64,000 nt of DNA from an uncultured Candidatus Micrarchaeota archaeon (GCA_963714085.1 OY970229.1:312392-376391), one strand, 5' to 3'. Positions 9,191-28,000 are shown, counted from the first letter of the stretch. Made by a program: numbers and translations. The notes: generated by a model not told the origin, from the letters alone.

Positions 9191-12100
9191 TGGTCTGGTG
9201 CTGCAGTATGCCGTATGTGCCTGCCGGGTTCAGGTTCGCGAGGCTGAGCGTGCCTGCCACGGTGTCGAGCGCCGCGCCCGTGTCGCTCCAGCTCCCGTTG
9301 TAATTCCAGAGCTCGAACCTGGTTTGGTCGTATCCGTTAAGCTCTGAGCCGTTCCAGCTCCAGACTGTTGAGTCTATGGACACGTTGCCCGAGACGACCG
9401 AGATGTCCACGAACTTCTGCGCGAACGAGTTATAGCTCGGTGGAAGGGCGGCCGGGATGCCGGACCAGTTTATAACGTATACCTCGCCGTCATCCATCGT
9501 GTCGTTGATGGAGAGGTTGGTGAAGTTCTCCATGTTGCCCATCGGGTTGTCGAATATGATGCCGGAGAGGTTGAGCGTGATTGGGGAGCCGGAACCACCC
9601 ACGACCAGGTCGTTGGTGTTGTTGGATAGGTATTGTCCCTGGACCACGGTCTGGTCGGAATATTGTATTGTGAGGCCGTTGGCGCAGTTGGATACGCTGT
9701 TGTTGCGCAGGAAGGTGTCGTTGGACGACTCAACTGAGAGGCCGAGCCAGCTGCTGGTATTGAAGTAAGCAACGCGGCAGTCGATGATGTTGTCTGTGGC
9801 GTCGGACGAGAACGACCCACTCAGTTCAAGGTTACTGTAAAATATATTGCTCAGGTTGTTCCCGGAAATCACGGTTTGGTTGCCGTCATATACATAGATG
9901 CCTTCGCTGTTGGAGTGGGCAATGGTATTATTGATGAAACTGGAGTTGGAAAGCTCATTCGCGTATATGCCATCGCTGCCGACGTTAATGACCGAATTGT
10001 TGATGAGGCTTATCGCGCTTGATGTGATTATAATGAATCCGGCATACGAATCGTTGTCAGCGACATCGTTGGTGTAAGTGACATTGTTGACGTAGTCTGT
10101 CACGAAGCCCCTGGCGTTGAAAGACGATGATACGTTGGCGACCAGGCTGTCGTTCGTCAGGTACATGAGGAAAGCGTTGTTGTAGAGCGTGTCGGAGCCG
10201 TTCACGATGCTGTTCGTGACCGTGGAGCCGCTCGCGCCGCAAAGCTCGATCTCAGCCGCATCCAGGCCGTCCCATGGTACCGGCTCATCCGAGTAGTACA
10301 CCGGGCGGTATCCGGAGCCGATCAGGTCGGTGATGTTGTTCTGGCAATAGGAAACATCCCAATTGTAAGGTGGATTCGGGTTGGACGGGGTTACATCAAG
10401 GTCCAAATTGCTATTTTCCATAGCCGTGTTATTGTATACCGTGTTCAGGCTGGAGCCGTAGATGCTGATGCCAGTATTGCAGTTGTTTGCGGTGTTGTTG
10501 TATATGGTATTGTTGTCAGACGACTGGAGGGAGATGCCGTTACTGCTGATGTTATAGGCGATGTTGTCATGCAGGACATTGTTGTCGGACGAGTAGAGGA
10601 CGATTCCGTTACCGTAGCTCTGGAACACGTTGCCGGATACCAGGTCATCAGTGCTTGCGTTAATTAAGATGTCGTTGTAGTCGTTGCTGAGATTGTTGTC
10701 CGTGAGATTGTTGTTCGAGCCGTGGTTCAGCATGATGCCTGCGATAGTGCCGGACCATTCGTAGCTGTTCGTCACAGTGACGTTCGTTATTACGGAATAG
10801 GTGGCCGATTCCATGTCTATTCCGTGTCCGTAGCCGGAGATGTTCGGGCAGTTCTGGATAGTCACGTTCGTGAGCGAGGGGAACACCGCGATGCCGTAGG
10901 TGGTCGGGCCCGCAGGCGCATCCATCGTGATGTTGTAGCCGTTGCAGTCGAAGACCACGTCGGAAGAGTTTATCTCCACGCATGCCGTGCCGCCCTCGGC
11001 CATCTCCGAGGCGTCGTTCGGGGCCCCGAAGAGATTGTTCATCGGGCTGAATGTGCCGCTCGTGCTTATCACCGGGCACTCCTGGAAGCTCTCGAATATG
11101 CCGTAGGCGCCGGCCTGGCCCAGGTTCGTGAGGCCGAGCGTGTTCGCGCTGGTGTCCGGGGTGTCGTTCAGCAGGGTCCAGCCCGAGTCGTTGAGGCCCC
11201 AGAGCCCGAACCTGCCCGGTGTGTACCCGCCCTCGGCCACTTGGTCGTCGGTCCAGCTCCAGACTATCGAATCGATGGACATCGTGCTCGAGAGATTGGT
11301 GATGTTCACGAATGTCCGGGCGAAGGAGTCCTCCCCGGGCAGGAGGGCGGACGAGTTGCTGGTCCAGTTTATGGAATACTCTTCGCCCGGGTCCACGCTG
11401 TCGTTGATGGAGAGGTTGGTGTAGTTCTCCAGGCCGCCCAGCGGGTTGTCGAAGACGAGGCCGGAGAGGTTGATTGTCATCGGGGAGCCGGAATCGTCCT
11501 GCACCTGCATGTCCTGGCTGTTGTTGGAGAAGTACATGCCTTGTACGGATGTCTGATCAGAGCGTTCTATCAGCAAGCCGGCATTGGAGTTGTTGGAGGC
11601 GCTGTTGTTGATGAAGGTGTTGTTGGCGGCATTCACGATGTAGAAGCCGTACCTGCCGTTGCCGCACGCGAGGTTGTTGGTGAAAGTGCTGTTTGGACTC
11701 CATGACTGCAAGCCATCGAAAGAATTGTTGCACATGACATTTCCTGAGAACAGGTTTGGCGAGGCGTTGTCTCCGGCATAGGTGTCGGCGACGTAGATGC
11801 CTGCCCAACTGGAGTTGTCCGCGGTATTGCTGACGAAGCTGGAGCCGGAGGCCGGGTCTATGTCGATGTAGAAACCGTCAGCGATATCTCCGGCTGCCGT
11901 ATTGTTGGTGAGATTGAGCGCGGTTGAATTGGTTATATGGAACCCGGCGCCGCTGTTGTTGTTCGCAATGCCGTTGAGGTACGTAATCGCGTTTGAGTCC
12001 TGCACGTTGAAACCGTCAAAGCCGGAGTTGTCCGCAGTGTCGTCGAGGAATGTGCAGTTGGAGTCGTCTGACATCAAAAAGCCGTATGAGTTCCCATAGG

Positions 12101-15100
12101 AGGTCGTGTTGGCTATGGTCGTGTCGTTGGTGAACTCCATGAAGAGGCCGTCGTTGTTGAGCGTGTCGGAGCCGCTGACCACGCTGTCCGTGATGTTCGA
12201 GCCGTCCGCGCCGCACAGGATGATCTCGGCGGCGTCAAGGCCGTCCCACGAGACCGGCTCGCTGGAATAGTATATCGGGCGGCCTGCGGAGCCGGTGTTG
12301 TTGAGCACCGTGGTGTTCTGGCAGTCCTCCACGGAACCGGGGTACACGCCGAAATCGGAATAGCCGTTTTCCGCTGCAGTGTTGTTGTACAGGGCGTTCT
12401 GCGCGTAGTCGAGGATGCCGAAATTCTCGTTGTTGTCGGCGGTGTTGTTGACCAGGATGTTCTGCGACCCACCGTTATAGATGCCGATTTGGTTGTTGTC
12501 CGCGTGGTCGTTGGACAGGTTGGTCTGGTTCGATGATGAGAGCAGGATGCCGAACACGCTGTTGTTGTCGAAAATGCTGTTGGATATGGTGTTCTGGTTC
12601 GACGAATCAAGGGAGATGCCCCAGGTGCCGGAGTAAAAGCCTGCGCTGACTTCGGTGATGTTTGTGAAGACGCTGTCGTTGGACTGGTAGACGTAGACGT
12701 TGTAGGTGTAATTGGATATCAAAGGGCAGTTCTGCACAGTGACGTTGGTGAGCGAGCCGTTGAGCAGGATGCCGTAGCGGTCGGTGAACATGTAGTCGTT
12801 CGTGATGGTGTGGCCGTTGCAGTCGTAGACCACGTTCGAGGCGGCGATCTTCACGCATGCCGCGCCAGGACTCGGCATCTCCGATGCGTCGTTCGGGGCT
12901 CCCGTGTAATCGGAAGGCTGGAGATAGGTCCCCGGCGAGGTGATGACCGGGCAGCTGGTCGCGTTATAGGTCACGTTCCTCTCTTCGGTGCAGCTCTCGG
13001 CTCCGTTGATGTCCTGCGCGCAGCCGTAATAGGCGAGGTTGTCCTCCCCGAACGGCAACGAGCCGAAGGACTGATTTGTGGAGAACTGCCATTTGCCGGC
13101 ATCGTACTTGTTGAGGTTGGACTCGTAGAGCTGCTGGATCTCGGACGCGGAGAGGGTGCGGTTGTATACGCGGATCTCGTCTATCGTGCCCTGGAAGTTC
13201 TGGGAGAAGCCGGTGAAACCCATGCCGCCGACAAGGTATTGGCCGCCGGCGGAATTGAATACGGGATTATACGACGACGCGCTTCCTGATGCCGCACCAT
13301 CGATGTAGAAAGTCGCGGTGGAGCCGTCGTATGTAACGGTGAGCTGGTGCCAGTCGCTGTCCGCGACCGTGCCTGTCGATCCGCCGAGGACGACGTTGCA
13401 GGCCCAATCGAAGAACACTGTGTTATCAGCGGCTATGCCGAGGCCCCAGCCGTTGCAATCGTGGGTATATATGATGGCCTCGCCTCCAGAGACGCTGGTG
13501 CGGTCCCTCTTTATCCAGGTCGAGACGGTCATCGGAGTGTGATCCAGGTTGCCCATGGTGAAGTTGTCGTCCACCCCGTCGAAGTGGTACGCGCCGCCGT
13601 ATACGCCGTCCGAGGTCCATGCCGGGCAGGACGAGCCGCTGCACGTGGCGTTGTTGCCGTACATGCTCACGTCCGTGACGTGGCTGTCATTCTCCCCCAG
13701 GGCGGAGACGTTGTCGAAGTCGTACATCAGCACGAGGCTGCCATCATAGGGGGTGTAGTTCGTGCCGTTCCAGTCGTAGGTGAGCTGGCCCAGCGGATAG
13801 CGAGTCTCGTTCACGCTGATGTTGACCAGGATGCTTGAATTGGACGTGAACGCGGCCTCTGGCGGAGTGGGCGGGCTGAACGCGATGGCCGGCCCGAAGA
13901 CGCGGCTTGTTATATGCCTCGTTTCCGTGCATTTTCCGTGTCCGTTGATGTCCTGCGCGCAGCCGGAATAGGTGAAAATGTGGTCCCCGCCCGAGAGCAC
14001 GTCGAACGACTGGTTGATGGAGAACTGCCATTTGTTCGTGTCGTATTTGTCGAGGTTGGATTCGTAGAGCTGCATGACTTCCTGTGCCGAAAGCGAACGG
14101 TTGTAGACGCGGAGTTCGTCCATGCTCCCTTGGAAATAGCTTCCCACTCCGGCTCCTATGAGGTATTGCCCGCCGCTGGAATTGAACGTATCGTTGTAAG
14201 ACTGGCTTCCGGCCGGATTGCCGTCGATATAGAAGGTCGCGGTGGAGCCGTTGTACGACATGACGACCTGGTGCCAATCCGTGTCCGTGATAGTGCCCGT
14301 TGAGGCGATGGTGTTGACGCAGGTATGCGAGAACACCAGGGTGTTGTCAGGCCATATGAAAAAGCTCCAGCCGTTGCAGTTCCCGCTGGCGATGAGGCCC
14401 TGATAACCCGGGCGGCTGGTGCTGTTAAGCTTTATCCAGGTGGAAACCGTGAGCTGGTTATCATCCAGATTGTTCGCATTGAACTGGTCGTCCACTCCGT
14501 CAAATACGTACGCGCCGCCGTATACGCCGTCCGGGGTCCATGCCGGGCAGGACGAGCCGCTGCACGTGGCGTTGTTGCCGTACATGCTCACGTCCGTGAC
14601 GTGGCTGTCGTCCTCCCCCAGGGCCGAGACGTTGTCGAAGTTGTACATCAGCACGAGGTTGCCATCATAGGGGGTGTAGTTCGTGTTGTTCCAATCGTAG
14701 GTGAGCTGGCCCAGCGGGTTGAGCGTCTCGTTGATGCTGATGTTGATGGGGACGCCCGGGGCGCTCGTTACGTTGCCGTCGGCCGGGGTCGGCGGGCTGA
14801 ACGCGATGTCCGGCCCGATGTTGTGCAATGTGATGTTCCTCGTCTCGGTGCAGGCCGTATCGGCAGCGCTATCCTGCACGCAGGCGGAATATGTGAAGTT
14901 ATAGTAGCCGGCTGGCAGAGAGCCGAACGGCTGGTTGACTGAGAACTGCCATGTGCCTGCATCGTATTCGTCGAGGTTGGAGAGGTAGAGCTGCCCGACC
15001 TCGGACGGCAAGAGGCTGCGGTTGTAGACGCGCAGCTCGTCTATCTTTCCCGGGAAATATTGATCGGATGCAACAACGAGACCCCCTATCGTGTACGGCC

Positions 15101-18100
15101 CGCCGCCGGAATTGAAGGTATACCCGAAATATTGGTTCCCGGCCGAAGCGCCGTCTATGTAGAATCTCACGGTGTAGCCGTCGTCGGTCACGACGATATT
15201 GTGCCATTGCGTGTCATTGATTGTGCCTGCCGATTTGACGTGGTCGATGCATCTGTCTGCGAGCCACAGGGTATTGTCCGGTCCTACGTACAGTTCCCAA
15301 CCGCCGCAGTTCTGGGCGTCGATAATCTCCTTGCCGCTGGCGAAGCTGGTGGTGTCCAGCTTTATCCAGGCCGAGACGCTGAATATGTTCATGTCCAGGT
15401 TGCCCGTGGTGAAGTAGTCGTCCACGCCGTCGAAGTGGAATGCGCCGTTGTATTTGCCGGACGGGGTCCATGTGGGGCAGGTCGAGCCGCTGCATACGGC
15501 GTCATGGCCGTTCATGCTCGCGTCGGCGACGTGGCTGCCGTCCTCTCCCAATGCGGAGAGGTTGTCGAAATGATAGAGGAGCACGAGGTCGTCGGTTGGA
15601 TCGAGCGTGCGGTTCGTGCCGTTCCAGTCCAGGATGAACCGGGTGAGCGGATTCGAGGTCTCGTTTATGCTGATGTTTATCGGGACCGTGGAACCGCTCG
15701 TGTTCGTGCCCTCGTCCGGGGTCGGCGGTGCGAATGCTATCTGCGGCGGGATGACGTGGTGCGTTATGTTCCTCGTCTCCGTGCAGTTCTCGTTGGCAGC
15801 GGTGTCCTGCGCGCAGGCGGAATAGGTGAAATTGTAGTCGCCGGCCGGCAGAGAGCCGAACGGCTGGCTGGTGGAGAACTGCCATGCGCCGGAACCGTAT
15901 TTGTTGGGGCTGGATTCGTAGAGCTGCTGCATCTCATCTGCGGTGAGGGAGCGATTGTAGATGCGGACATCGTCCATCGTGCCGTTGAAGCAGCTGTTTT
16001 CCCCATCATAGGCGCATCCGAGCACGTATGGCGCGGCGCCGTTGAAGGTGGGCGAATACGGGTTCGCAATCCCTACCTGGACGCCGTCTATGTAGAATGT
16101 CGCTGTGTAGCCATCGTAGGTTAACGCGACCTGGTGCCATGTGTTGTCCGTGATCGTGCCTGCTGAGCCAATGGTGAAATGGCCGTGCCATTGGAGATAG
16201 AGATGGTCGCCCGAATCCACCCCGAAGCCCCAACCGTCGTATTGCGCGGGATGGAAGATGGTCATCCAGCCGGAGGAGTATGAACTCTTGTTTATCCATG
16301 CGGAGACAGTCATCTGGTTCATATTGAAGTTGCCCCTGACGAGGGCGTATTGCGAGCCGTTGAAATGCATCGCGCCGCCGTATACGCCGGCCGGGGTCCA
16401 GGTCGGGCAGGTCGAGCCGGCGCATTCCGCGTCATGGCCGCCCATGCTCGAGTCGATGATGTGGCTGCCGTCCTCTCCGAAAGCGGAGAAGTTGTCGAAA
16501 CGGTAGAGGAGCACGAGGTCGTCGCTGACGTCGAGCGTGCGGTTCGTGCCGTTCCAGTCCAGGATGAACCGGCTGAGCTGGTCGGAGGTCTCGTTCATGG
16601 TGGCGCTGATGGGTATTGTTGAATTGGACGTCACCGTGGCTTCGTCCGGGGTCGGCTGGGAGAAGGCTATCTGCGGCGGGATGGGCTGGAACGTAACGTT
16701 CCTCGTCTCTGTGCAGTTCCCGTTGTCGATGTCGTCCTGCGCGCAGGCGAAATAGGTGAAATCGTGGTCGCCGGCCGGCAAGGAAGCGAAGGGCTGGTTG
16801 GCGAAGAACTGCCATGCGCTCGCGTTGTCTTTGTTGAGGTTGGATTCGTAGAGCTGCTCTATCTCCATGTCGGAAAGCGCGCGGTCGTAGACGCGGACCT
16901 CGTCTATCTTTCCGTTGAAGTAATCGCCCCAATTAGGGTCCTTTCCCAGGGTGAACTTGTTCACGGTGTTCTGCCCGCTTGTCGGATACGTTCTGTATCT
17001 CACCCCGTTCTTATAGAACGTCACGCTGGACGCTGTGTATATCACCGCGACCTGCTGCCACTGGTTGAAATCAACCGGTGCGGTCTGCTGCCGATTAGGT
17101 CCTGTGTCCCCGGTGTATACCTCCCAATCGGACGTTCCGCCCTCTATAGTAAGGGTGCGGTCCCAGTTGTAATCATCGTCGCTGAACACGTCCTGCCGGC
17201 TTCCGCTCGTAGTTGTCGGATAGACCCACGCCACGAACGTCATGTACGGCATCGCGGAGGGCTGTATGTCGAGATTGGTGCCCAGAGCGTCGGATCCGTC
17301 GTATGAGAATGCGCCGCCGTATTTGCCGTCAGGCGTCCATGTCGGGCAGTTGCCGTTGCACGTGGCGTTGTTACCGTACATGCTCAGGTCCGTGACATGG
17401 CCGTCGCCCTCCCCCAACGAGGAGAGGTTGTCGAAGTTGTACATCAGGACCAGGTCCGGGCTGTACACGCTATCGTTATTCAGCTGGGGGCCGCATGTCA
17501 GGTTCATGGCGCTCGGCTTATAGCAGCGGAAGTCGCAGTCCCCGTAGGTGGGCCCGTAAGGCCAGCAACCGCCCCCGTATGTGACCGTGCACGAGCTGCT
17601 CCCTATCGCGCAGTTTCCGCAGTCGACGCCTGCGCCTCCGCCGCATGTACCGCATCCGACGCCCCATTTCGATGTGTAGCCGGATATCACGGTCCCTGCC
17701 GGGCAGGACAGGGTTATCGTAGACTCTTCGCCCGAGGCTTCATGGACGTTTACGACGCTGCTGTTGGCCGGGACGGAACTGCCGTTCCAGTCGAAGACGA
17801 ACTTTCCGAGAGGCAGCGTCCCCTCGTTGATGCTGATGTTGATAGGTATGGTCGAATTGGATGTGTTCGCGGCCTCATCTGGGGTCGGAGGGGTGAAGGC
17901 TATGCCTGGCGGCGTTACGGGGCAGAGCGGGGCGAAGATGCTTCCGAGATCGGTTATGTTGGCGAACACGAATTTGTTGACGGTGTCCACTCCGTATGAG
18001 GACGAGAAGTTTGCGGTGTCGGTTATCCATCCAGCGCCGTTTTGGGTGGTGTATTTTCCCATGAAGAGCAAGCTCTCGTTCAGCCGCGCGAGGTCCGCAG

Positions 18101-18413
18101 GGCTGTAGCTGAAGTTGAGGAAGAGGAACGAGTCCGGCGAGTTGGAGGTGGCTTCCACGAACCTGTTGATGTCTGCCGTGAGCACCGGCCTCCGGGCATT
18201 GATGCTGTTGGAGGAGCTGGTGCCGTTCTCGAAGAGCTTTATCTGCAGGGTGTTGTTCCCGGAATCGCCATAGCCGTATTCCGCGGCATGGTCGTAGAAG
18301 ATAATATATACGCGGTTGGGCGCCGTGCCCGCGACCCCGTAGGTGATGTTGCTGTCCACCCCGTTGGTGACTAGGTCCGACCACACGCCGGCGACCAGGT
18401 AATCCGAACCCTG
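1..18413 (-). CDS. Giant surface protein B, continuation after the frameshift (3'-partial; ~6,137 codons in-window). It contains a SUEL-like segment, 5 LamG cassettes, 2 beta-helix modules and >=32 Ig-like domains.
   Basis: This is the minus frame whose codon first bases are 2 mod 3. I checked codons at 17768, 8738 and 53, and all are in this frame. From 18413 the translation is collinear with gene A (QGSDYLVAGVWSDLVTNGVDSNITYG vs QDGDYLVAGLWTDLVSDGVNGTITYG). The ORF track lists no minus-strand ORF in this frame anywhere in 1-18413, as expected if there is no stop before the left edge. Upstream the frame is open only to a TAA at 18696-18698, and the only in-frame alternative start there is GTG 18450-18452. 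Confidence 0.85.
9191..11078 (-). other. Gene B: beta-helix module d plus cap
   Basis: CPVISTSGTFSPMNNLFGAPNDASEMAEGGTACVEINSSDVVFDCNGYNITMD (Cys codon 11076-11078). PbH1 turns follow, then the 2-Cys insert (YCQNNITDLIGSGYRPVYYSDEPVPWDGLDAAEIELCGASGS). The cap ends ...GTYGILQH. Confidence 0.7.
11079..12953 (-). other. Gene B: beta-helix module c plus cap
   Basis: CPVITSPGTYLQPSDYTGAPNDASEMPSPGAACVKIAASNVVYDCNGHTITND (Cys codon 12951-12953). PbH1 turns follow, then the 2-Cys insert (EDCQNTTVLNNTGSAGRPIYYSSEPVSWDGLDAAEIILCGADGS). The cap ends ...GAYGIFES. Confidence 0.7.
13115..17470 (-). repeat. Gene B: 5 LamG cassettes; the last four form a regular ~0.93-kb tandem cassette
   Basis: LV(L)(M/L)Y.FDN(L/F/V)S starts lie at about 17470, 16520, 15590, 14660 and 13730. 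Each cassette ends F(N/P/Q)G.(I/M)D(E/D)(V/L/I)R(V/I)YNR(S/T/A)L....(I/V/M).QLY. Shadow ORFs 15607..15825 and 16537..16755 are 930 nt apart. Confidence 0.8.
17495..17725 (-). other. Gene B: Cys-rich SUEL-lectin-like segment
   Basis: My translation is ITLSCPAGTVISGYTSKWGVGCGTCGGGGAGVDCGNCAIGSSSCTVTYGGGCWPYGPTYGDCDFRCYKPSAMNLTCG. It is positionally equivalent to gene A 59070-59305. Confidence 0.4.
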
Positions 18414-18844
18414 GTTATGCCCTGCGAACTCATGTAGTCCTCGTCGCAGCACGAGCTGTCGTCCGAGACTACGGTTTCGTTGTTCATGTAGATGAAGCCG
18501 TTCGTGCTTATCCTTATGTGGTCGTTCTGCCTTCCGAAAAGCGTGACGTTGAAGGGGAGCGTTATGTCGTCGCTGACGCCCTCGTCCCCGTACATCGACC
18601 CCAGGACGGTCATGCCAGATACGGGCGTGAGGTCCGTGGCGGTGTTGGATGAAAGGACGCTTCCGTTCGTCCCCGCGTAGTAGGCCACGGAGCCGTTATA
18701 ATCGACAATGGTCGGGCCGAAGGACGTGATGCTGCTGGGACTGCCCGCCCCGCCCGAGAGGCCCGTGACTTTGGTGCCGTCTCCCTGGGTCGAGAGTATG
18801 TCTATCTCGATGTTCGGCGAGCCGCTGTTTGTCCTAGGGCGCCC
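17925..18844 (-). other. Gene B: NIDO-like region, split by the frameshift
   Basis: ITLPFNVTLFGRQNDHIRISTNGFIYMNNE is in the upstream frame. YLVAGVWSDLVTNGVDSNITYG ... NNTLQIKLFENGT is in the downstream frame. The region is collinear with gene A 59500-60411. Confidence 0.4.
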
Positions 18845-21800
18845 GGAATCCTGGATGTTCACGTCCTTGGGCTCGAAGGACAGCGTGTTGTTGCCCAGGC
18901 TGAGGTTTTGGACCACGATGCCCGTGGAATCGTCGCTCGAGGAGAAGGCCCAGAGCGAGTTGCCTGATGCGTTGCAGCTGGTGAAATTGCTGTCCTGCGT
19001 CGAGTTGAGTGCGAAGCCGATGCTGTTGTTGTGCGCCGTGACTGAGGCGAAGGTGTCGTTGTCGGACTGGTAGGCGTAGAGGCCGTAGGTGTAATTGGAT
19101 ATCAGAGGGCAGTTCTGGACCGTCACGTTGGTGAGCGACGGGACGATCGCGATTCCGTAGGAGATGCCGGTTGTGCCGTTGCCGGTTATGGTGTCGCCGT
19201 TGCAGTCGAAGACGACGTTGGAGGCTGCTATCTTCACGCATGCCATGCCTCCATCGGGCATCTCCGAGGCGTCGTTCGGAGCCCCCAGGTAAGAGTTCGC
19301 CATGGTGAACGTCCCGGGCGAATCCACCACCTGGCAGGTCTGGATGGTCTCGAGTATGCCGTAGGTGCTCGCAGGATTCAGGTTCGTGAGGGCGAGTGTG
19401 TCCGCGCCGGTATCGAGCGCCGCGCCCGTATTGCTCCATGTTCCGTTGTATTTCCAGAGCTGGAAGCTCGATTCGTTGTGCCCTGAGCTCTCGGGATCGG
19501 TCCAGCTCCAGCGGATGGAGTCTATGGATACGGTCCCGGAGACTTTCGATATGTTCACGAACTTCTGCGCGAATGATACGCGGTTTTGCGGGAGGGTGGG
19601 CGGGCTATTCGCCCATTTTATCGTGTACGTCTCGCTTTTCAGCTGGTCGTTTATCGAAAGGTTCGTGTAGCCGGCCATGCTGCCCGTTGGATTGTCGAAC
19701 ACCACTCCTGTGAGGTTCACCGTCCTGTTGGTGCCGTCCGTCGTTATATAGAAACTTGCCACCGAATTGTTGAAGTAGCGGTCGTAGGAGATCTGCGTAT
19801 TGTTGCTTTTTTGGATGTATACGCCGTATTGGCTGTTGTCGTGCGCGGTGTTGTTGGTCAGGTTGTCGTTGTTGCTGCTTTGGAGGTAGAAGCCATAGCC
19901 GGAGCCGGACACCGTGTCGTTGGTGAACAGGTCTCCGTTGCTGCTTTGCGGGGAGAAGCCGTAACTGCAGCCGTATACCGTGTCGTTGGCGAACAGGTCT
20001 CCGTTGGACTGGTATGCGACGGCGCCGTACGTATAGGCCGATATCCCCGGGCAGTTCTGCACCGTCACGTTGCTGGCAGAGCTGCTGACCATTATGCCGT
20101 AGGTCGTTCCCGCGATGCCGTGGTTGGTTATCGCATGGCCGGCGCAGTCGAAGACCACGTTTGATGCGGTTATTTTCACGCACGCATTGCCTGCGAGCGG
20201 CGATACGCTGTTCGGGGCGCCGGAGTAGTCCCTGTCCATGGTGTAGAGGCCTGGAGCGGATATCACCGGGCAGTTGATGTTGTGGTATGTCACGTTCCTG
20301 GTCTCGGTGCAGTTCTCATTTGCGCCGCTATCCTGCACGCAGGCGGAATACGTGAAATTATAGTAGCCGGAGAGGGGAATGAAGCCGAAGGGCTGGTTGA
20401 GGAGGAACTGCGTGCTGCCGGGGTTGTAGCTGAGGGGATTGCCTAGATAGAGCTGCTGGATCTCCGATGCCGAGAGCGAGCGGTTGTAGATGCGGACCTC
20501 GTCCATCGTGCCGTTGAAGAACTCGCTGGAGGGGCTCGTGCCGTGCGAGCCGAGCATGAGCGGATATGGCGAGCTCGGGATGGCCCCGGATTGGGCGCGC
20601 CAGTTGTCAAGGACGCCGTTGATGTAGAGCTTCTCCTGGCTGCCGTCGTAGGTGGCTGTGAGCATGTACCACTGTCCAGAGCTCAGGACGGTGTTGGAGT
20701 CCAAGGCATAGCCGGGGTTCGCTGTCCAGAACTCGGCATGGACTCCGTTGGTGCGCAGCGCGTATGTCGCGTATGGGGAACCCCAATACGGCGTGATGGG
20801 GTTGGCCAGCTTGGTGATGAGGTCCTCGTAATAGGGGAAGTTGTCCGAGACATTGACCCACACCGAGAGGGTCAGCCCGTTGGTCGGGTCCAGCGATGGG
20901 CTGTCGGGCACTGTGAGGTAGTCGGTCCCGTCGAAGTGATAGGCTCCGTTGAACCTGCCGGCAGAAGTCCATTTCGGGCATGACGTGCCGCTGCACGTGA
21001 TGCGGTTGCCGTACACGCTAGAGTCGGCGATGTGGCTGCTGTCCTCGCCCAATGCGGAGAGGTTGTCGAAATGATAAAGGAGCACGAGGTCGTTGGTGGG
21101 CTCGTACGTGAGGTTCGTGCCGTTCCAGTCCAGGACGAGCCGGGTGAGCGGGTTGGAGGTCTCGTTCACGGTCACGTTTATGGGTATCGACGAATCGTTT
21201 GTTGCCGCCGCTTCGTCCGGGGTCGGCGGGGCGAATGCTATCTCCGGCGCGATGACGTCGTGCGTTATGTTCCTTGTTTCCGTGCAGTTCTCCGAGCCGA
21301 ACGCGTCCTGGACGCAGGCGGAATACGTGAAATTGTATTCGCCGGCGGGCAAAGAGCCGAACGGCTGGTTCGTGAAGAACTGCCAGTTGGTGGAATCGTA
21401 GAGCTGTGCTATCTCGGATGGCGGGAGGACGCGGTCGTAGACGCGCAGGTCGTCTATCAGGCCCTGGAAGTAGAAGCCACCGTCCATGTTCTGCTCCCCT
21501 ACCCCGTAGTGCCCTGCGCCGGAATTGAAAGTGTCGCTGTACCCCTGGCTGCCTGCCGGGACGCCATCTATGTAGAAGTTGACGTTGGAGCCGTCGTATG
21601 TGACGCTGACGAAATGCCAGGCCGTGTCAGTGATTGTGGAGGAGGATGCGCGGTCGCTATTGCACGTGTGGGTGAGCCGCAGTGTGTTGTCGGAATCGAT
21701 GCGCACGCCCCATCCTCCGCAGTTCATGGAGGCGAATATTCCGTCGTTGGAACCGACCCGGTCCCTCTTTATCCAGGCGGTGAACGTCAATGGGACGTTG

Positions 21801-24751
21801 TGGTCCAGGTTCACGCCGCTGTTGAAATAGGTCTGCGTGCCGTCGAACTGGTATGCGCCGCCGAATTTTCCGTCGGGCGTCCATGCCGGGCAGGACGAGC
21901 CGCTGCACGTGGCGTTGTTGCCGTACGTGCTCAGGTCCGTGACATGGTGGCCGTCCTCCCCCAAATAAGAGAGATTGTCGAACTCGTAGGCCAGCACGAG
22001 GCTGCTGTCGTATATTCCGTTGCCTGGCAACGTGCGGTTCGTGCCGTTCCAGTTGAAGACGAACGTGCTGAGGAGATTGGACGTCTCGTTCACGCTGATG
22101 TTGATGGGCATTGTGTAATTGGTTGTGCTGGCGCCTTCATCCGGGGTCGGCGCTGAGAATGCGATGGCCGGGGGGATGATGCGGAATGTCACATCCCTCG
22201 ACGTGCAGTTCTCGGACCCGAACATGTCCGCTATGCAGGCGGAATACGTGAAATTATGGTCGCCGGAGGGGAACAGGCCGAAGGACTGGGTCGTTGAGAA
22301 CTGCCAGTTGGTGGAGTTGTAGAGCTGCGCTATCTCGGATGCCGGCAGGGCGCGGTCGTAGACGCGCAGGTCGTCCATCGTGCCGTTGAAATAGGAGTCT
22401 CCGCCACCGGAGGTCCCGATCACGTAGTCCCCGCCTCCGCCATAGCTTACCGAGAAGCCCGGGTTTTCTTCCGGGATGCCATCTATGTAGAATATCGCGC
22501 TGGTACCGTTGTAGGTCACCGCGACATGCTGCCATGCTCCGTCGGTGACCGTGTCTGTTGAGATGGTCGTGAAATGGCCGCGCCATTCGAGATAAAGGTG
22601 ATTGTCATTCGTTATGCCGAAGCCGAAGCCGCCGTCGTTTCTGGAATGGAGGATATACATCCACTGGGGGGAGTCCGACTCCTTGTCTATCCATGCGGAA
22701 ACCGTCAGCTGGCTGTAGTCGAGGTTTCCTGTATCGAAGTAGTCCTGCACGCCGTCGAAATGGTATGCGCCGCCGTACTTGCCGTTCAGGGTCCACATGG
22801 GGCAGTCCGGGTCGGTGCACGTGGCGTTGTCGCCGTACGTGCTCAGGTCCGTGACGTGGTGGCCGTCCTCTCCCAGGTAAGGGAGGTTGTCGAACTCGTA
22901 GGCCAGCACGAGGCTGCTGTCGTATACGCCGTTGCCGGGCAGCGTGCGGTTGGTGCCGTTCCAGCCAAGGGTGAACACGCCGAGCGGGTTGGAGGTCGAG
23001 TTCATGCTTATGTTTATCAGGATGGATGAAGCGCTCGTTGTGCTGCCATTATCCGGGGTCGGCGGGCTGAAGGCGATGGCCGGCGGGGCGGGCTGGTACG
23101 TCACATCCCTTGACGTGCAGTTCTCGAAAGCGAGTGTATCCTGCGCGCAGCCGGAATACGTGAAGTTATAGTCGCCGGGCTGGAACGGACCGAAGGGCTG
23201 GTTGATGGAGAACTGCCATTGGCCGGGAGCGTATTTGTTGAGGTTGGACTCGTAGAGCTGTTGGATCTCCGATGCCGAGAGCGTGCGGTTGTAGAAGCGC
23301 ATCTCGTCCATGCTGCCATTTAAAAAGCCCCCTATGTAGCTTCCTATGTAATAAATGCCATTGTGATTTATCGGGTTCGAGAAAGGGCTGGTTCCGGCCG
23401 GAGCGCCGTCTATATAGTAGTCCACGCTGGAGCCGTCGTAGGTCACGGCGACTTGATGCCAATCCGTGTCCATGATCCTGCCTGTCGAGGGGGCGGCGTC
23501 GGCGATATACGCCTGCCCGAACCTCAGGGTATTGTCCGACCCGAGGTACAGGACCCAGCCCTGGCCGTTGTCAGTGGCGAGGCCCTGCAACCAGCCGATG
23601 TGGGTGCTGTCCAGCTTTATCCAGGTGGAGAATGTGAGCGGGACGGTGCTCAGATCGTTCGTAGTGAACTGCTCGTCCACTCCGTCGAAATGGTATGCGC
23701 CCCCGTACCTGCCGTCCAGCGTCCATGTCGGGCAGTACGGGTCTGTGCACGTGGCGGTGTTGTTGCCGTACATGCTCAGGTCCGTGACCTGGCTCCCGTT
23801 CTCCCCCAGCGAGGAGACGTTGTCGAAGTTGTACATCAGCAGAAGGCTGGGGTCGTAGGGCGTGTAGTTCGCGCCGTAGCTGATGGGATTGGAAAGGTAG
23901 AGCTGCTGGATTTCCGATGCTGAAAGTGAACGGTTGAGTGCCATGACCTCGTCCACCGAACCGTTGAAGAAAAAGAACGGGGGGCCATAATCATGGAACA
24001 GGCAGCCGATGCTGAAGCCATCGAGCGTCGAATCCGGAGATGCGGACGACGTTCCGGGAGTCACCACACCGTCAACATACAGGTATGTCGTTCCGTCCCT
24101 CCTTGTCATCGTTACATAGTACCACTGGTTTGCAGAAGGGAAGGCATAACCGCTATCTATAATTACGACACCGCCGAAAAGCCCTTCGAGATGGTCTCCT
24201 ATGACTCCAAAGCCGTAGCCGCCGTAATCACGCCCGTTGTAGACGGCTATGGTCGTCGCCTGCGGCAGGACCGCCGGATTTATCCATGCGGCCAGCGTCC
24301 AATTGTCCGTGGCGTTCGTGGCTGCGTTCGGGAAGCCGATGTAGCCATCGACTCCGTCGAATGTGTAAGCGCCCCCGTATTTTCCTGAGGGTGTGAACGA
24401 CGCTCCCCCGTAGACCGTTCCGACCCTTCCGAAGGAGCTCACATCGGCGACGCTCGTGGAAGTCTCTCCGAGCGCGGAGACGTTGTCCAGGTGGCACATG
24501 AGCACGAGGCTGCTGTCACTGGACGTGTAGTCCGTGCCGTTCCAGTCGTAGGTGAACGAACCCAGCGGGTGGGCGGTCTCGTTTACGCTTATGTTGACCA
24601 GCATGGTCCGGTTGGATACGGTCGCGGCTTCGTCCTGGGTCGGCGGGCTGAATGCGATGGCCGGTTGGGCGTGGCTGAGTGGCACGCAGGCCAGGCTGAA
24701 AAGCAGGGCCAGTAATAATGCTACGAATGTCACATTTCCCCTACGATGCAT
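18371..24751 (-). CDS. Giant surface protein B, N-terminal reading frame (2,126 aa as listed). It is terminated prematurely by a frameshift and is a paralog of gene A.
   Basis: ORF track 18371..24751, with ATG at 24749-24751. It carries a signal peptide, 5 LamG cassettes, 2 short beta-helix modules and the start of a NIDO-like region, collinear with gene A. The last 13 residues (RVRITWSPACGRT*) have no counterpart in gene A and are frameshift read-through. Confidence 0.9.
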   Translation of the reverse strand: MHRRGNVTFVALLLALLFSLACVPLSHAQPAIAFSPPTQDEAATVSNRTMLVNISVNETAHPLGSFTYDWNGTDYTSSDSSLVLMCHLDNVSALGETSTSVADVSSFGRVGTVYGGASFTPSGKYGGAYTFDGVDGYIGFPNAATNATDNWTLAAWINPAVLPQATTIAVYNGRDYGGYGFGVIGDHLEGLFGGVVIIDSGYAFPSANQWYYVTMTRRDGTTYLYVDGVVTPGTSSASPDSTLDGFSIGCLFHDYGPPFFFFNGSVDEVMALNRSLSASEIQQLYLSNPISYGANYTPYDPSLLLMYNFDNVSSLGENGSQVTDLSMYGNNTATCTDPYCPTWTLDGRYGGAYHFDGVDEQFTTNDLSTVPLTFSTWIKLDSTHIGWLQGLATDNGQGWVLYLGSDNTLRFGQAYIADAAPSTGRIMDTDWHQVAVTYDGSSVDYYIDGAPAGTSPFSNPINHNGIYYIGSYIGGFLNGSMDEMRFYNRTLSASEIQQLYESNLNKYAPGQWQFSINQPFGPFQPGDYNFTYSGCAQDTLAFENCTSRDVTYQPAPPAIAFSPPTPDNGSTTSASSILINISMNSTSNPLGVFTLGWNGTNRTLPGNGVYDSSLVLAYEFDNLPYLGEDGHHVTDLSTYGDNATCTDPDCPMWTLNGKYGGAYHFDGVQDYFDTGNLDYSQLTVSAWIDKESDSPQWMYILHSRNDGGFGFGITNDNHLYLEWRGHFTTISTDTVTDGAWQHVAVTYNGTSAIFYIDGIPEENPGFSVSYGGGGDYVIGTSGGGDSYFNGTMDDLRVYDRALPASEIAQLYNSTNWQFSTTQSFGLFPSGDHNFTYSACIADMFGSENCTSRDVTFRIIPPAIAFSAPTPDEGASTTNYTMPINISVNETSNLLSTFVFNWNGTNRTLPGNGIYDSSLVLAYEFDNLSYLGEDGHHVTDLSTYGNNATCSGSSCPAWTPDGKFGGAYQFDGTQTYFNSGVNLDHNVPLTFTAWIKRDRVGSNDGIFASMNCGGWGVRIDSDNTLRLTHTCNSDRASSSTITDTAWHFVSVTYDGSNVNFYIDGVPAGSQGYSDTFNSGAGHYGVGEQNMDGGFYFQGLIDDLRVYDRVLPPSEIAQLYDSTNWQFFTNQPFGSLPAGEYNFTYSACVQDAFGSENCTETRNITHDVIAPEIAFAPPTPDEAAATNDSSIPINVTVNETSNPLTRLVLDWNGTNLTYEPTNDLVLLYHFDNLSALGEDSSHIADSSVYGNRITCSGTSCPKWTSAGRFNGAYHFDGTDYLTVPDSPSLDPTNGLTLSVWVNVSDNFPYYEDLITKLANPITPYWGSPYATYALRTNGVHAEFWTANPGYALDSNTVLSSGQWYMLTATYDGSQEKLYINGVLDNWRAQSGAIPSSPYPLMLGSHGTSPSSEFFNGTMDEVRIYNRSLSASEIQQLYLGNPLSYNPGSTQFLLNQPFGFIPLSGYYNFTYSACVQDSGANENCTETRNVTYHNINCPVISAPGLYTMDRDYSGAPNSVSPLAGNACVKITASNVVFDCAGHAITNHGIAGTTYGIMVSSSASNVTVQNCPGISAYTYGAVAYQSNGDLFANDTVYGCSYGFSPQSSNGDLFTNDTVSGSGYGFYLQSSNNDNLTNNTAHDNSQYGVYIQKSNNTQISYDRYFNNSVASFYITTDGTNRTVNLTGVVFDNPTGSMAGYTNLSINDQLKSETYTIKWANSPPTLPQNRVSFAQKFVNISKVSGTVSIDSIRWSWTDPESSGHNESSFQLWKYNGTWSNTGAALDTGADTLALTNLNPASTYGILETIQTCQVVDSPGTFTMANSYLGAPNDASEMPDGGMACVKIAASNVVFDCNGDTITGNGTTGISYGIAIVPSLTNVTVQNCPLISNYTYGLYAYQSDNDTFASVTAHNNSIGFALNSTQDSNFTSCNASGNSLWAFSSSDDSTGIVVQNLSLGNNTLSFEPKDVNIQDSGRPRTNSGSPNIEIDILSTQGDGTKVTGLSGGAGSPSSITSFGPTIVDYNGSVAYYAGTNGSVLSSNTATDLTPVSGMTVLGSMYGDEGVSDDITLPFNVTLFGRQNDHIRISTNGFIYMNNETVVSDDSSCCDEDYMSSQGITRVRITWSPACGRT
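18845..19336 (-). other. Gene B: short beta-helix module b (counterpart of gene A module 3)
   Basis: CQVVDSPGTFTMANSYLGAPNDASEMPDGGMACVKIAASNVVFDCNGDTITGNG ... IGFALNSTQDSNFTSCNASGNSLWAFSS ... EPKDVNIQDS. Confidence 0.6.
19337..20272 (-). other. Gene B: short beta-helix module a plus cap (counterpart of gene A module 2)
   Basis: CPVISAPGLYTMDRDYSGAPNSVSPLAGNACVKITASNVVFDCAGHAITNHG ... GYGFYLQSSNNDNLTNNTAHDNSQYGVYIQKSNNTQISYD ... FAQKFVNIS..SIDSIRWSW ... STYGILE. Confidence 0.7.
20440..24530 (-). other. Gene B: 5 LamG cassettes with small flanking domains
   Basis: Five copies of ..L(V/L)L..(H/F/Y)(L/F)DN ... (K/R)(Y/F)(G/N)GAY.FDG ... W(H/Q/Y).V(A/S/T)(V/M)T ... (Y/F)(I/V)(D/N)G ... (F/L)(N/Q)G(S/T/L)(V/M/I)D(E/D)(V/M/L)(M/R).(L/Y)(N/D)R.L..SEI.QLY. 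Most are preceded by (I/A)AF(S/A)(P/A)PTPD...N(I/V)(S/T)VNET..(P/L)L..F...WNGT and followed by WQF(S/F)..Q.FG....G..NFTYS.C......ENCT.R. Confidence 0.8.
24668..24751 (-). other. Gene B: Sec-type signal peptide
   Basis: MHRRGNVTFVALLLALLFSLACVPLSHA / QPAIAF. It has a basic n-region, a 15-residue hydrophobic core and a small-x-small (S-H-A) site. Confidence 0.75.
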
Positions 24752-24772
24752 GCAGGTGTTACTTATACAGCA

Positions 24773-24780
24773 TTTAAAAA
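24773..24780 (-). promoter_or_regulatory. TATA-like box (minus strand TTTTTAAA) for gene B; leaderless or near-leaderless start
   Basis: The minus strand reads GCAAGAATC-TTTTTAAA-TGCTGTATAAGTAACACCTGC-ATG. The box is 22-29 nt upstream of the ATG and is preceded by purine-rich AAGAA. No GGAGG-like Shine-Dalgarno lies between the box and the ATG. Confidence 0.4.
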
Positions 24781-24867
24781 GATTCTTGCTCGCTGAGCAT
24801 GGTTTTCTTGATCAACGGGCATACGTAAACCGCATGCTGCAAGAGCGTTGAGAGGCTATGGAAAAGG

Positions 24868-25012: not shown

Positions 25013-28000
25013 TCAGGCCGGCGGCGGATTCTGCGGCGGGGTTGCCGGAGGCGACTGCCTCGTGTGCCAGGGTTTGCGCGGCGGCCTGCCGGCGGTGAGG
25101 AACTCGTATGCCAGGAAAGCCAGGACCATGGCCGCGGATATCAGCACCGGCATCCACCAGTAGCTCTCCAGTCCCGGGGACGGAGGCTGGACCGCGCCCT
25201 GCGCCGATGAGTTCGACGGGGGCTGGACCGCCATGTTGAGGCTTAGCGTCGTGGAGACGCCTCCGTGGGCCACGTTCACCGTGTAATAGCCGTGCAGCTG
25301 GAACGGGAGCATGGATTCGCCGTTCGCGTCCGTGGTGACCTGGGAGCTCGTCGCGTTGGGCCCGTATATCTGGAGTATGGCGTTCGCCAGCGGAAGCCCG
25401 CCCACCGTGAGCAGGATCACTCCCTCTCCGCTCGGGCCCTCGTTGGAGCCGGTGATGTTCGGGACGTCGCACGAGTTGGCCACGCAGAACTGGCCCTGGC
25501 GGCAGTCGGTGTCCGCGCAGCATTCGTATTGGTGCCAGGCATGGTTCTCGACGTAACCGCAGGAGCTCGTCACGGACTGGCAGACCCCCAGGGTCGTGTT
25601 GCAGAAGGCCGTGGACGGGCATTGCGCGTCCGCTGTGCAGTTGACCTGGGGCGAGACCGGCGGGACCACAGGCGGGGTGACGTTCGCCGGGGCCCCCGCG
25701 GCGCATGTCGTGTACGTGAAGTTGTTGATTCCGGACCTGTAGCCCTGCTTGGAGCCGTCGATCTCGTAGCTCCCGTTCGCGGCCAGGTGGAACACCGCGG
25801 TGGCGTCGCTTCCGGTCGTGGCCGAGTAAAGCGTCCCCTCGTACGGTTTCGTGAGCAGGAGCTTCACGCTCACGCCCGATGTGGACGAGGTCACGGTCAC
25901 CTCGTCGGACGGGCATGGCGCTATCACGTAGGAGAGCAGCAGCGACGGCTCGGTGTACGGCCCTGACGCGTATCCTCCGCCACCGCCTCCTCCGCCTCCC
26001 CCTCCGGATGGCGGGGGCGGGGGCGGCGCTGGAGCGGATATCGTGAAGACGTAGCCCGCCGACGAGTTCGTATTGCCGTAGATGTCGGTGCAGGTCACTA
26101 TCCAGGTGTGGCGTCCCAGCGCGACGAGCGGGCTCGTCTGGTCGGAGGAGCCGCTCACGAAGGCGTCGTCGGTGTAGTTGGGCGACCCGTCCAGGTAAAG
26201 CGAGCAGTTCATCGTGGGGGACGCGGCATCCGTCGCAGTGAAGTTGAGGTCCACGACCATGGGTGCGCTCGATGTCAGGCCGGCTCCGTTCGCAGGGCTG
26301 TTGAGCGCTATGTTCGGCAGGACCGAGCTGGAGTTGAAGCTCCTGGTCTCGCTCGTGTTCGCGTTGCCCGCGTTGTCCGTGCACGTCACGTACCAGGTGT
26401 GGTTCCCGTCGCTTATGCCGCTGACGCTGAAGACGGCCAGGGTGTTGTTCGCCGCGGGCTCGGTCTGCTTCGGGACGCCGTCGATGAAGAGCGAGCAGCT
26501 CATCGCCGAGGCGAGGTTGTCCGTCGCGGTGAAGTTGAATGCGACCGCCGCTGTGGTGAGCGACTGGTTGTACGGGGATAGGAGGCTCACGGCCGGGGCG
26601 GTCGTGTCCACGGTGAAGCTCCTGGGGATGCTCGTGCCGTTGTTGCCGGCCCCGTCGATGCAGGTGACGTTCCAGGTGTAGGCCCCCTCGCCCGTGACGT
26701 TGTAGCCCAGGGCCGTCAGGGTGTCGTTGGATGCGGTCGTGGAGTTGACTACCGCGCCGTTGATGGTGAGGTTGCATGAGGCGTTCGGGAAGAACGGGTC
26801 CGTCTCGTTGAATATGAAGTTCAATTGCGTCGACGAGCTGTTGAAGCCGTCGGCCGGGGAGACGAGGATTACGGTCGGCCCTGTGGTGGCGACCGTGAAG
26901 CCCCAAGTCGCGCTGGTGTTCGTATTGTTGGCGAAATCCTTGCAGGAGACGCTCCATGTGTGCGGGCCGCCGACCAGGTTCGCGTCGCCCATGTCAGCCG
27001 GTACATTGTTCGTAGCGGTGGTCGAGTTCACCGCGTGGCCGTCCACGGTGAGGTTGCATGATGCGGTCGGGTATACCGGGTCCGTCTCGTTGAAGCTGAA
27101 GTCTATCGAGGTCGCCGGGGTGGCGCTGTTGTTGTACGGGGAGTTGAGGCTCACGGTCGGGGCCGTGGTGACGACCGTGAAGTTCTCCGTTCCGCTCACA
27201 TTGCTGTTGTTGGCGTTGTCCGTGCAGTTGACGTACCAGGTGTGGTTCCCGTCGGCTATGCCGCTGACGTTGAAGACGGTGGCGGTGTTGTTGCTCACCG
27301 AGGAGTTGGTCCGGTTCGGGGCGTCGTCGAGGACGAGCAAGCAGCTCATCTTCTGGGCCAGGTTGTCCTGAGCCGTGAAGTTGAAGTAGACCGACGATGA
27401 ATTGAGCGTCGACAGGTTGTATGGGGAGTTGAGGCTTATGCTCGGCGGGGTGGTGTCCACCGTGAAGTTCCTCGGGAGGCTTGAGCTCGTGTTGCCGCCG
27501 TCATCCGTGCAGGAGACGTTCCAGGTGTAGGCCCCGTCGGCCGGGACGGTGTAGCCCATGGTCGTCACGGTGCTGTTGTTGGCGGTGGTGGAGTTCACCG
27601 ATGCGCCGTTGACCATGAGGCTGCACGACGCGTTCGTATAGAACAGATCCGTCATGTTGAAGGTGAAGTTCAGCGCGGTAGCCGAGGTGTTGAGGCCGCT
27701 GATTGGCGAGAGGGAGACCACGATCGGACCTCCTATGACGACCGTCAAGCTCCAGGTCGCGCTGGTGTTCGTATTGTTCGCGAAGTCGGTGCAGGACACG
27801 CTCCATGTGTGCGGGCCGGCGCTGATGCCCGAGTCTCCCAAGGTCGCCGGGGTGTTGTTCGTCGCGGTCGTGGAGTTGACCGAATGGCCGTCCACGGTGA
27901 GGTTGCATGATGCGGTCGGGTATACCGGGTCCGTCTCGTTGAAGCTGAAGCTCAGCGACGCCGCCGCGGTGACGCTGTTGTTGTACGGGGAGTTGAGGAC

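Follow-up and report, generated by a model that had tools for sequence, protein, structure and literature searches.

A shared block of modules in two tandem giant genes of a Candidatus Micrarchaeota archaeon, a probable ancestral head of surface adhesins

The two giant genes and their shared block

The window analysed in this work is a stretch of 64,000 nucleotides (nt) from an uncultured Candidatus Micrarchaeota archaeon (GCA_963714085.1, OY970229.1:312392-376391), whose genome assembly is a single contig of 1.57 Mb. It is almost wholly occupied by two minus-strand genes, A and B, which encode giant modular proteins and share a collinear block of modules, the core, located at 59070-61777 in A and 17495-20272 in B. 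Coordinates are those of the window unless the genome is named, and the features described lie on the minus strand unless otherwise stated. Gene A has its stop at 25013 and its frame is still open at the window end, the ATG lying 2,040 nt beyond; in full length (window 25013-64000 and beyond, genome 337404-378431) it is one open frame of 13,675 amino acids (aa). Gene B starts at 24751 with the N-terminus MHRRGNVTFVA...LACVPLSHAQ and is found in two frames, that of the open reading frame (ORF) 18371-24751 (2,126 aa) and that of ORF 3-18452, the latter running off the window start; with the split read through, the protein has about 8,825 aa. The genes measure about 41 kb and 26.5 kb, gene A representing 2.6% of the genome and both together about 4.3%, and they are arranged in tandem, in the same orientation and 261 nt apart.

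The limits of the core were compared by BLASTP, alignment and module hidden Markov models (HMMs). It comprises residues 1422-2323 of full-length A and residues 1494-2419 of B, read through the frameshift, and both intervals open at the codon for the Cys of 'CPVIS...', with which a short beta-helix cassette begins. BLASTP returned a single high-scoring segment pair (B 1494-2639 against A 706-1803 in window numbering, 53.7% identity over 1,167 columns, E = 0), and the global alignment of the two intervals showed 62% amino-acid and 73% nucleotide identity over 890 columns. The order of modules is common to both genes: short helix, S domain, short helix, X, NIDO-like, Y, IgN and SUEL-like. These results bear out the module-for-module collinearity described in an earlier sequence-only reading of the window, and the three peptides quoted there as nearly the same in both proteins are found in the alignment as written. 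That reading ended the block at 17495 and 59070; collinearity runs past these points for about 270 residues, through LamG and IgC (half of an Ig-like domain), to about 16686 in B and 57671 in A. The continuation in B (16686-17393) consists of LamG (16839-17393) and IgC (16686-16832), and that in A (57671-59017) of one additional LamG (58487-59017), LamG (57821-58411) and IgC (57671-57814). B, in turn, has an additional helix rung of 22 residues.

The module HMMs, which were built in-house, were mapped onto both proteins and left no large unassigned stretch in A or B. In A, the signal peptide is followed by two cassettes of beta-helix and S domain (H-S), the shared block ([Hshort-S][Hshort-X-NIDO-Y][IgN-SUEL-LamG-LamG-IgC]), and then H-S, Ig(LamG)3, H-S, Ig(LamG)3, H-S, Ig-LamG, H-S, 64 stalk repeats and the anchor. 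In B, the signal peptide is followed by Ig(LamG)2, three Ig-LamG cassettes, the same block with one LamG, four Ig-LamG cassettes, two H-S cassettes, 35 stalk repeats and the anchor. X, the NIDO-like and the SUEL-like domains are present in single copy in each giant and restricted to the shared block. The upstream flanks differ as previously noted, with four Ig cassettes containing five LamG domains in B and beta-helix/S cassettes in A. The statement that everything around the core is reshuffled was too strong, as the signal peptide, 55 promoter-proximal nt, the next LamG and IgC, and the last 3,640 residues or so are collinear as well, the last 3,640 residues of B aligning with A from end to end.

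As tandem paralogs, genes A and B each have a promoter-like stretch and a signal peptide of their own. The start codon and signal peptide of B (MHRRGNVTFVALLLALLFSLACVPLSHAQ) are located at 24662-24751; the signal peptide of A is 73% identical over residues 1-30, and that of the orthologous gene of a close relative, described below, is closely similar. The promoter-like stretch of B (24752-24810) was recognized by comparison of the three genes: about 55 nt located 5' of the ATG are nearly identical in A (genome 378432-378490), in B and in the ortholog (about 9880-9934 of locus L023), and include a TTTTTAAA box some 25-30 nt ahead of the start. This near-identity indicates that the duplication carried the promoter along. 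At the other end, the anchor region of A (25013-26038; 341 aa plus the stop) contains a transmembrane helix, followed by a basic, Pro-rich tail, and is 82% identical to the anchor of B, which is located outside the window (genome 310666-311700).

The two frames of B meet at 18413-18414, within the NIDO-like domain, where the coding strand presents CC and that of A presents CCC (GGC ATA AC- CAG GGT in B, GGC ATA ACC CAG GAT in A; GG against GGG on the plus strand). Because one C is missing, the first frame continues for 13 more codons, to the TAG at 18371-18373 that ends ORF 18371-24751, and the remainder of the gene lies in the frame of ORF 3-18452. An exact-pattern scan of metagenome contigs for the shift site with two or three C gave no match. 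A programmed +1 frameshift was rejected, since AGG is the commonest Arg codon in both genes and hence not 'hungry', and ACC-AGG allows no re-pairing. Phase variation was rejected too, a run of two or three C being too short.

Modules of the core and their occurrence elsewhere

In the Pfam scan, which covered A up to residue 3,200 (window numbering) and B up to about residue 3,600, only NosD/Beta_helix and Laminin_G_3 are recognized in the block region. The 902-aa core matched NosD (PF05048, 61.9 bits) and Beta_helix (PF13229, 46 bits) on two stretches each, above the cut-offs, and also TIGR03804 (28.2 bits, above the cut-off). The corresponding modules of A are two short right-handed beta-helices of about 150-160 residues each, H1 (61295-61777; NosD/Beta_helix and TIGR03804) and H2 (60443-60892; Pfam and own HMM). 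Between them is located the beta-rich S domain ('FDNP...SIDSIxWSW'; 60893-61294), which closes every helix cassette and is defined by its own HMM, with a weak match to DUF7359 only. H2 is followed by the X element of 82 aa (60197-60442; own HMM, homologs and AlphaFold model), the NIDO-like domain (59777-60196), and Y (59483-59776; own HMM and homologs), a beta domain normally found directly 3' of a helix. IgN (59357-59482; own HMM map) is the first half of the Ig-like frame of a LamG cassette, and inserted after it is the SUEL or rhamnose-binding-lectin-like domain with 8 Cys (59075-59356). In B, the frameshift-split NIDO-like domain occupies 18210-18631 (own HMM) and the SUEL-like domain 17490-17777 (own HMM and SUEL-like profile).

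The name 'NIDO-like' holds through intermediate sequences and custom profiles only. Of ten remote homologs of the A domain found with phmmer, three pass Pfam NIDO (PF06119, gathering cut-off 25 bits) over the same stretch (P0016 with 40.8 bits, P0036 with 32.7 and P0032 with 29.3), and 11 of the 37 aligned NIDO-like homologs match PF06119 and no other family. In addition, the NIDO-like profile matched residues 50-167 of RemA from Flavobacterium johnsoniae (PDB 8gl6_D) with E = 1.6e-11, RemA in 8gl6 being reported as resolved at its C-terminal domain only (PMC10994853). The domain shares with the metazoan NIDO domains (PF06119; nidogen, mucin-4, alpha-tectorin) three sequence blocks, F.F.G...I.(I/V)S.NG(F/Y)I, (I/V)AG.W.DL and NR.F(I/V)(I/V)...TFQI.L.E. 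Unlike these, the archaeal domain presents a conserved vicinal Cys-Cys and the 82-residue X element at its N-terminus, and has no direct Pfam match. The vicinal Cys-Cys ('S.CC', at about 59990-60010 in A) is conserved in most archaeal and bacterial NIDO-like homologs; a thioester-like reading of the motif 'CC.G(Q/E)' was discarded, as the Gln is not conserved in the archaeal copies. A literature search found no paper on prokaryotic NIDO domains.

In archaeal copies, X is always located 5' of the NIDO-like domain. AlphaFold predicted X-NIDO-Y, with a 39-sequence alignment, as all-beta (pLDDT 82, pTM 0.69), with no drop of confidence from X to NIDO; from the single sequence, the pLDDT was 31. 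Searched against a viral structure library, this model (A 59483-60442) matched two uncharacterised tailed-phage proteins, A0A6J5P7T5 and A0A6J5KVM1, with E of about 1e-4 and an uninformative TM of about 0.3, no other structural match being below E = 0.001; these proteins may carry a NIDO-like domain.

The designation 'SUEL-like' holds through a custom profile only. The profile, built from six sequences and searched against the PDB, aligned full length with all three lectin domains of the L-rhamnose-binding lectin 5h4s_A (E = 9e-7). Weaker matches, among them lectin domains of a beta-galactosidase and of latrophilin, included 5iaz_A (0.021) and 8suf_E (0.028), and the remaining ones were chance matches to antibody light chains. 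The domain of A has 8 Cys, and six Cys together with E11, D74 and K81 are invariant in the six sequences. Like the rhamnose-binding lectin domains of SUL-I (5h4s) and of latrophilin (8suf), it has about 90 residues and 8 Cys, and its invariant E, D and K align with the conserved E, 'DPC' and 'KYL' positions, which we take to be involved in sugar binding. Unlike them, the A and B domains are below the Pfam cut-off and belong to archaeal proteins, in which they interrupt an Ig-LamG cassette. Both giants have degenerate 'YGR' and 'DPC' motifs; these are more readily recognized in a small minus-strand ORF outside the window (genome 987600-988667), which has a lipoprotein-like signal (MNKPLIAAFALAFILLCGC) and ends in the clearest SUEL-like domain of the genome, with the motifs 'TYGT', 'GGDPC' and 'KKGTLTLVC'. 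The sole genome-wide match to SUEL_Lectin (PF02140, cut-off 31.4 bits) is found at genome 987630-987839, with 14.8 bits, below the cut-off.

The four elements, two short helices, NIDO-like and SUEL-like, are not an obligate unit. The conserved linkage expected of them holds in part: the first three remain linked in the positional ortholog of the relative, and elsewhere the elements occur independently. Two more proteins of the genome present a long beta-helix, X-NIDO-Y, a Pro linker, a Cys-rich part and a transmembrane anchor, without SUEL, short H-S or LamG. They are encoded by tandem paralogs on the minus strand, outside the window (genome 412227-418955 and 419094-424463; frames of 2,242 and 1,789 aa), with nearly the same C-terminal part. 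In one of them, a helix also runs directly into a Y domain without X-NIDO, an arrangement that is common among database proteins, so X-NIDO looks as if inserted between a beta-helix and the Y domain usually joined to it. In other Micrarchaeota proteins, X-NIDO is found directly behind the signal peptide or after an S domain, and in archaeal proteins more widely at the N-terminus or after a helix. NIDO-like domains alone form arrays of two to four, bacterial ones among them, and the named genomes that carry such domains belong to Bacteroidota, Ignavibacteria, WOR-3 and Cloacimonadota. In the phylum itself, 5 of the 401 sampled genomes, from two genera of one family, matched the NIDO-like profile, and the full X-NIDO-Y unit was found, among 60 relatives, in the same genus only.

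The SUEL-like profile matched 6 of the 401 genomes. In another genus the domain is part of IgN-SUEL-LamG-IgC cassettes, which have no NIDO in their vicinity and are located after an S domain or a further Ig cassette, and the fragment P0018 likewise has Ig-SUEL-LamG without NIDO. The four-element block including SUEL was found in A and B only, by protein search and metagenome scan, and the metagenome scan with Y-IgN-SUEL revealed no relative. The head is composed of three separable cassettes, in one of which, the Ig-LamG cassette, the SUEL-like domain is an insert.

The syntenic gene of a close relative

A search of 1.84 billion representative proteins gave 337 matches. The best foreign match, P0002, with 66% identity over the best matched stretch, is a single gene of about 2,370 aa in a close relative, at a locus syntenic with A and B. 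Both loci are flanked by GrpE, DnaK, DnaJ, MarC and a radical SAM gene upstream (the last with an intein in the relative), and by EF1B, S13, S4, S11 and RpoD downstream. The modules of P0002 are Hshort-S, Hshort-X-NIDO-Y, IgN-LamG-IgC (without SUEL), H-S, two stalk repeats and an anchor with the same transmembrane helix. Its N-terminus corresponds to the first seven core modules in the same order, and the upstream frame presents the same signal peptide with the core directly after it. The shared flanking genes, signal peptide and architecture identify this gene as the positional ortholog of the A and B pair. The radical SAM gene adjoining A is located just past the window end (genome 378924-381356); the relative's copy, to which it is 90% identical, is annotated with the intein (Intein_splicing, LAGLIDADG).

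Since the single gene of the relative, at the same locus, starts with the core, the core is probably the ancestral N-terminal head. Genes A and B share the skeleton of the ortholog, with different cassettes (helix/S, Ig(LamG)n and Ig-like stalk repeats) added on both sides of the head. As the cassettes N-terminal to the head differ between A and B, the simplest history would be an ancestor like the short head-first gene, a tandem duplication including the promoter, and then independent amplification of cassettes. The giants may have grown by unequal recombination of the repeated cassettes, and the head modules would have stayed alignable because they are single-copy and escape this reshuffling.

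The neighbouring housekeeping genes differ from those of the relative by a synonymous divergence (dS) of 0.27-0.64, with a ratio of nonsynonymous to synonymous divergence (dN/dS) of 0.05-0.12. Between the core of A and P0002, dS is 0.4-0.85 and dN 0.14-0.24; the dN/dS of the core is 0.2-0.5, and at the protein level the head evolves 5-10 times faster than the neighbours, as measured by dN. In five of seven modules (H1, S1, H2, X and Y), the core of A resembles the ortholog more than it does B; by anchor, type of LamG and possession of SUEL, A groups with B. In all, the locus differs by about 60 kb of coding sequence, about ninefold in size, between genomes whose neighbouring genes have a dS of about 0.4, which would represent a striking growth of genes.

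Proposed function and rival explanations

We propose, as a fairly probable reading, that, in one Micrarchaeota genus, a family of heavily N-glycosylated fibre adhesins has inherited the core as its N-terminal head, with a putative role in glycan binding. The proteins would be exported by the Sec signal peptide and retained by the C-terminal transmembrane helix, and the sugar-coated Ig stalk would hold the head away from the cell, where its ligands may be glycans of a partner cell or of a surface. As candidates for the binding we name the rhamnose-binding-lectin-like domain, the NIDO-like domain (with RemA, a bacterial surface lectin, as precedent), LamG and perhaps also the short helices. This proposal draws on the presence of folds that elsewhere bind carbohydrates, on the standing of LamG proteins as attachment candidates in DPANN archaea, and on the pattern of N-glycosylation sequons, which number 7.6-8.2 per 100 aa in the stalk and 1.2-4.2 in X, NIDO, Y, SUEL and LamG. 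Such a two- to fourfold reduction fits a ligand-binding head, and the contrast is expected for a glycan-shielded extender with exposed binding surfaces. The fast evolution of the head at the protein level would likewise be expected for a recognition surface.

LamG-rich surface proteins have been proposed as host-attachment candidates in DPANN archaea (PMC5498576, PMC10266531), with a LamG expansion in Mia14 (PMC5498576), and the nanohaloarchaeal 'SPEARE' protein SVXNc_0300, of 9,409 aa, was called the largest protein in cultivated archaea (PMC10266531). Proteins A and B belong with these giant modular surface adhesins, their unusual features being the RemA/NIDO-like and rhamnose-binding-lectin-like domains. 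Like SVXNc_0300 and the Mia14 proteins, they come from small-genome archaea of symbiotic type and present a Sec signal, a huge glycosylated ectodomain, a tandem Ig-like stalk, a C-terminal membrane anchor and LamG domains of the kind proposed for host recognition. On the other hand, the VirB4/TraG-like ATPase part reported for nanohaloarchaeal giants (PMC10266531) was not seen in A or B in the Pfam scans, which covered the N-terminal parts only; the head is made of short helices, X-NIDO and SUEL-like; and A is longer than the 9,409-aa protein. The bacterial giant adhesins (SiiE, the RTX adhesins of MpIBP/LapA type, and Giant1-5 of Apilactobacillus, PMC12863079) also have an anchor, a long Ig-like extender and a single-copy binding cluster, and they show growth by block duplication and tandem paralogs. 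Their sequences, secretion route and anchoring are unrelated to those of A and B, in which the binding cluster is embedded between further cassettes.

The lectin domain of RemA is probably of the galactose/rhamnose-binding type. Like A and B, RemA is a long surface adhesin with C-terminal anchoring and with a NIDO-like domain at its N-terminal, distal end. Unlike them, it is a bacterial protein of 1,436 aa, exported and anchored via a type IX secretion C-terminal domain, whereas A and B have a Sec signal peptide and a C-terminal transmembrane helix, are 6-10 times longer, and carry the domain after a beta-helix with the extra X. NCBIfam gave no match on the last 341 residues; in place of a type IX sorting domain, the C-terminus has the transmembrane helix and the Pro-rich tail. 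RemA is described as a mobile cell-surface lectin of the gliding machinery of F. johnsoniae (Shrivastava et al. 2012, pmid 22582276, as cited in PMC10994853), and it carries a lectin domain (PMC12618676).

In the recognition of hosts by DPANN archaea, the giant LamG-rich proteins are the usual suspects. For the binding parts, the present analysis reduces the 41 kb of A and the 26.5 kb of B to a head that measures about 900-1,250 residues, with two concrete candidate binding domains, the rhamnose-binding-lectin-like and the RemA/NIDO-like one. The relative bears this head on a six-times-smaller protein, far easier to express.

Several points weigh against the proposal. The head is not at the tip in A and B, about 1,400 residues of other cassettes being located N-terminal to it. 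PF06119 gave no match on the A segment at E <= 10 and none genome-wide at E <= 1, PF02140 did not match A or B, direct NCBIfam and Pfam scans for NIDO and SUEL gave no match above cut-off on the A segments, and a Foldseek search of the X-NIDO-Y model against the PDB returned nothing at E <= 0.001. In the X-NIDO-Y tree, A, B and the ortholog form an unresolved polytomy, and a rooted tree gave for this reason no date for the duplication relative to the ortholog. The short gene could also be a product of deletion, in which case the direction of change would be the reverse. Finally, the dN/dS of the core, about 0.5, equals that of the stalk, with no sign of special constraint, and the head of B is frameshifted.

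The sequence-only reading took the core for a functional centre that survives among reshuffled flanks, which would imply stronger purifying selection than in the rest of the proteins. NG86 estimates, with 95% confidence intervals of identity by block bootstrap, showed between A and B an amino-acid identity of 0.624 (0.59-0.66) for the core (dN 0.277, dS 0.57, dN/dS 0.49) and of 0.594 (0.57-0.62) for 35 stalk repeats in register (dN 0.30, dS 0.59, dN/dS 0.51); identity was 0.595 for LamG and IgC directly downstream, and 0.824 for the 341-aa anchor (dN 0.11, dS 0.23). The LamG cassettes of the non-collinear flanks have best partners in the other giant at 50-55% BLAST identity, against 53.7% for the core, so the core is essentially as diverged as its flanks and much less conserved than the anchor. 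Its dN/dS is also 4-10 times that of the neighbouring genes, and the SUEL element is missing from the ortholog. We therefore consider a specially constrained centre unlikely, even if NIDO, S1 and IgN present the lowest dN/dS of the block (0.33-0.36). What stands of the claim is that the core holds the sole copies of X, NIDO-like and SUEL-like in each giant and is kept as the N-terminus of the ortholog, which makes it a reasonable region in which to seek specificity; that two paralogs have a block in common is an ordinary outcome of duplication and cassette shuffling, not evidence of special constraint. A similarity maintained by gene conversion between the copies (concerted evolution), instead of by descent plus selection, is highly improbable. 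The genes are suitably placed, being close, in tandem and in the same orientation, and the low dS of the anchor, compared with about 0.57 in the other collinear parts, fits conversion at the 3' end, later homogenisation or stronger constraint there. The dS of the core, however, is as high as that of the stalk and that between A and the ortholog, with no recent conversion tract, and on these values conversion was rejected as the cause of the core similarity; the five modules of A nearer to the ortholog than to B argue in the same direction.

It is quite possible that B is a pseudogene with a decaying relic of the core, function being limited to A or to the N-terminal product of B (2,126 aa). 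The one-base deletion with its early stop favours this, as do the lack of a signal peptide in the downstream frame, a B branch about twice that of A in H2, S1 and Y (derived from module distances), and the apparent frameshift of another giant gene of the genome. However, 6,712 codons located 3' of the shift remain open, dN/dS is similar before (0.45) and after it (0.55), and the NIDO-like domain is the best-kept module of B in relation to the ortholog (76%), which together indicate a break of very recent date or a fault of the assembly. The assembly is a single contig and the missing base falls in a short homopolymer; the B copy is either freshly inactivated or mis-assembled at one base. That the core is mainly an enzyme, with the NosD-like helices as polysaccharide lyases or hydrolases cutting the partner envelope and the lectin-like domains only for targeting, is improbable. 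The fold matched by Pfam on both helices is common in pectate lyases and phage depolymerases, but these helices have only about 150-160 residues with no catalytic family matched, H2 has the second-highest dN/dS of the block (0.65), and many beta-helix surface proteins are purely structural or adhesive. A further extension of the adhesin-head proposal, which we regard as rather doubtful, is that X-NIDO and the rhamnose-binding-lectin-like modules are parts of bacterial adhesins of RemA type from Bacteroidota or the Fibrobacterota-Chlorobiota-Bacteroidota (FCB) group, captured horizontally by one Micrarchaeota family and built into the head of a host-attachment fibre. The head would then decide the host glycan and the host, and the syntenic locus would govern host range and expand fast, having grown from about 7 kb to about 68 kb between sister species.

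Another gene for a giant surface protein, located outside the window on the minus strand (genome 39103-47263), looks frameshifted within a stalk repeat: its first part, a 1,382-aa ORF, has a signal peptide, and the open frame of 1,425 aa behind it lacks a start of its own. Two broken giants in one assembly could represent genuine decay or errors of assembly. The giants are overlapped, on the plus strand or in other frames, by many ORFs of 150-380 aa, such as 17397-17999 (+), 19586-20164 (+) and 18834-19439 (-); these are not genes, but shadows of the strongly skewed, GC-rich coding sequence.

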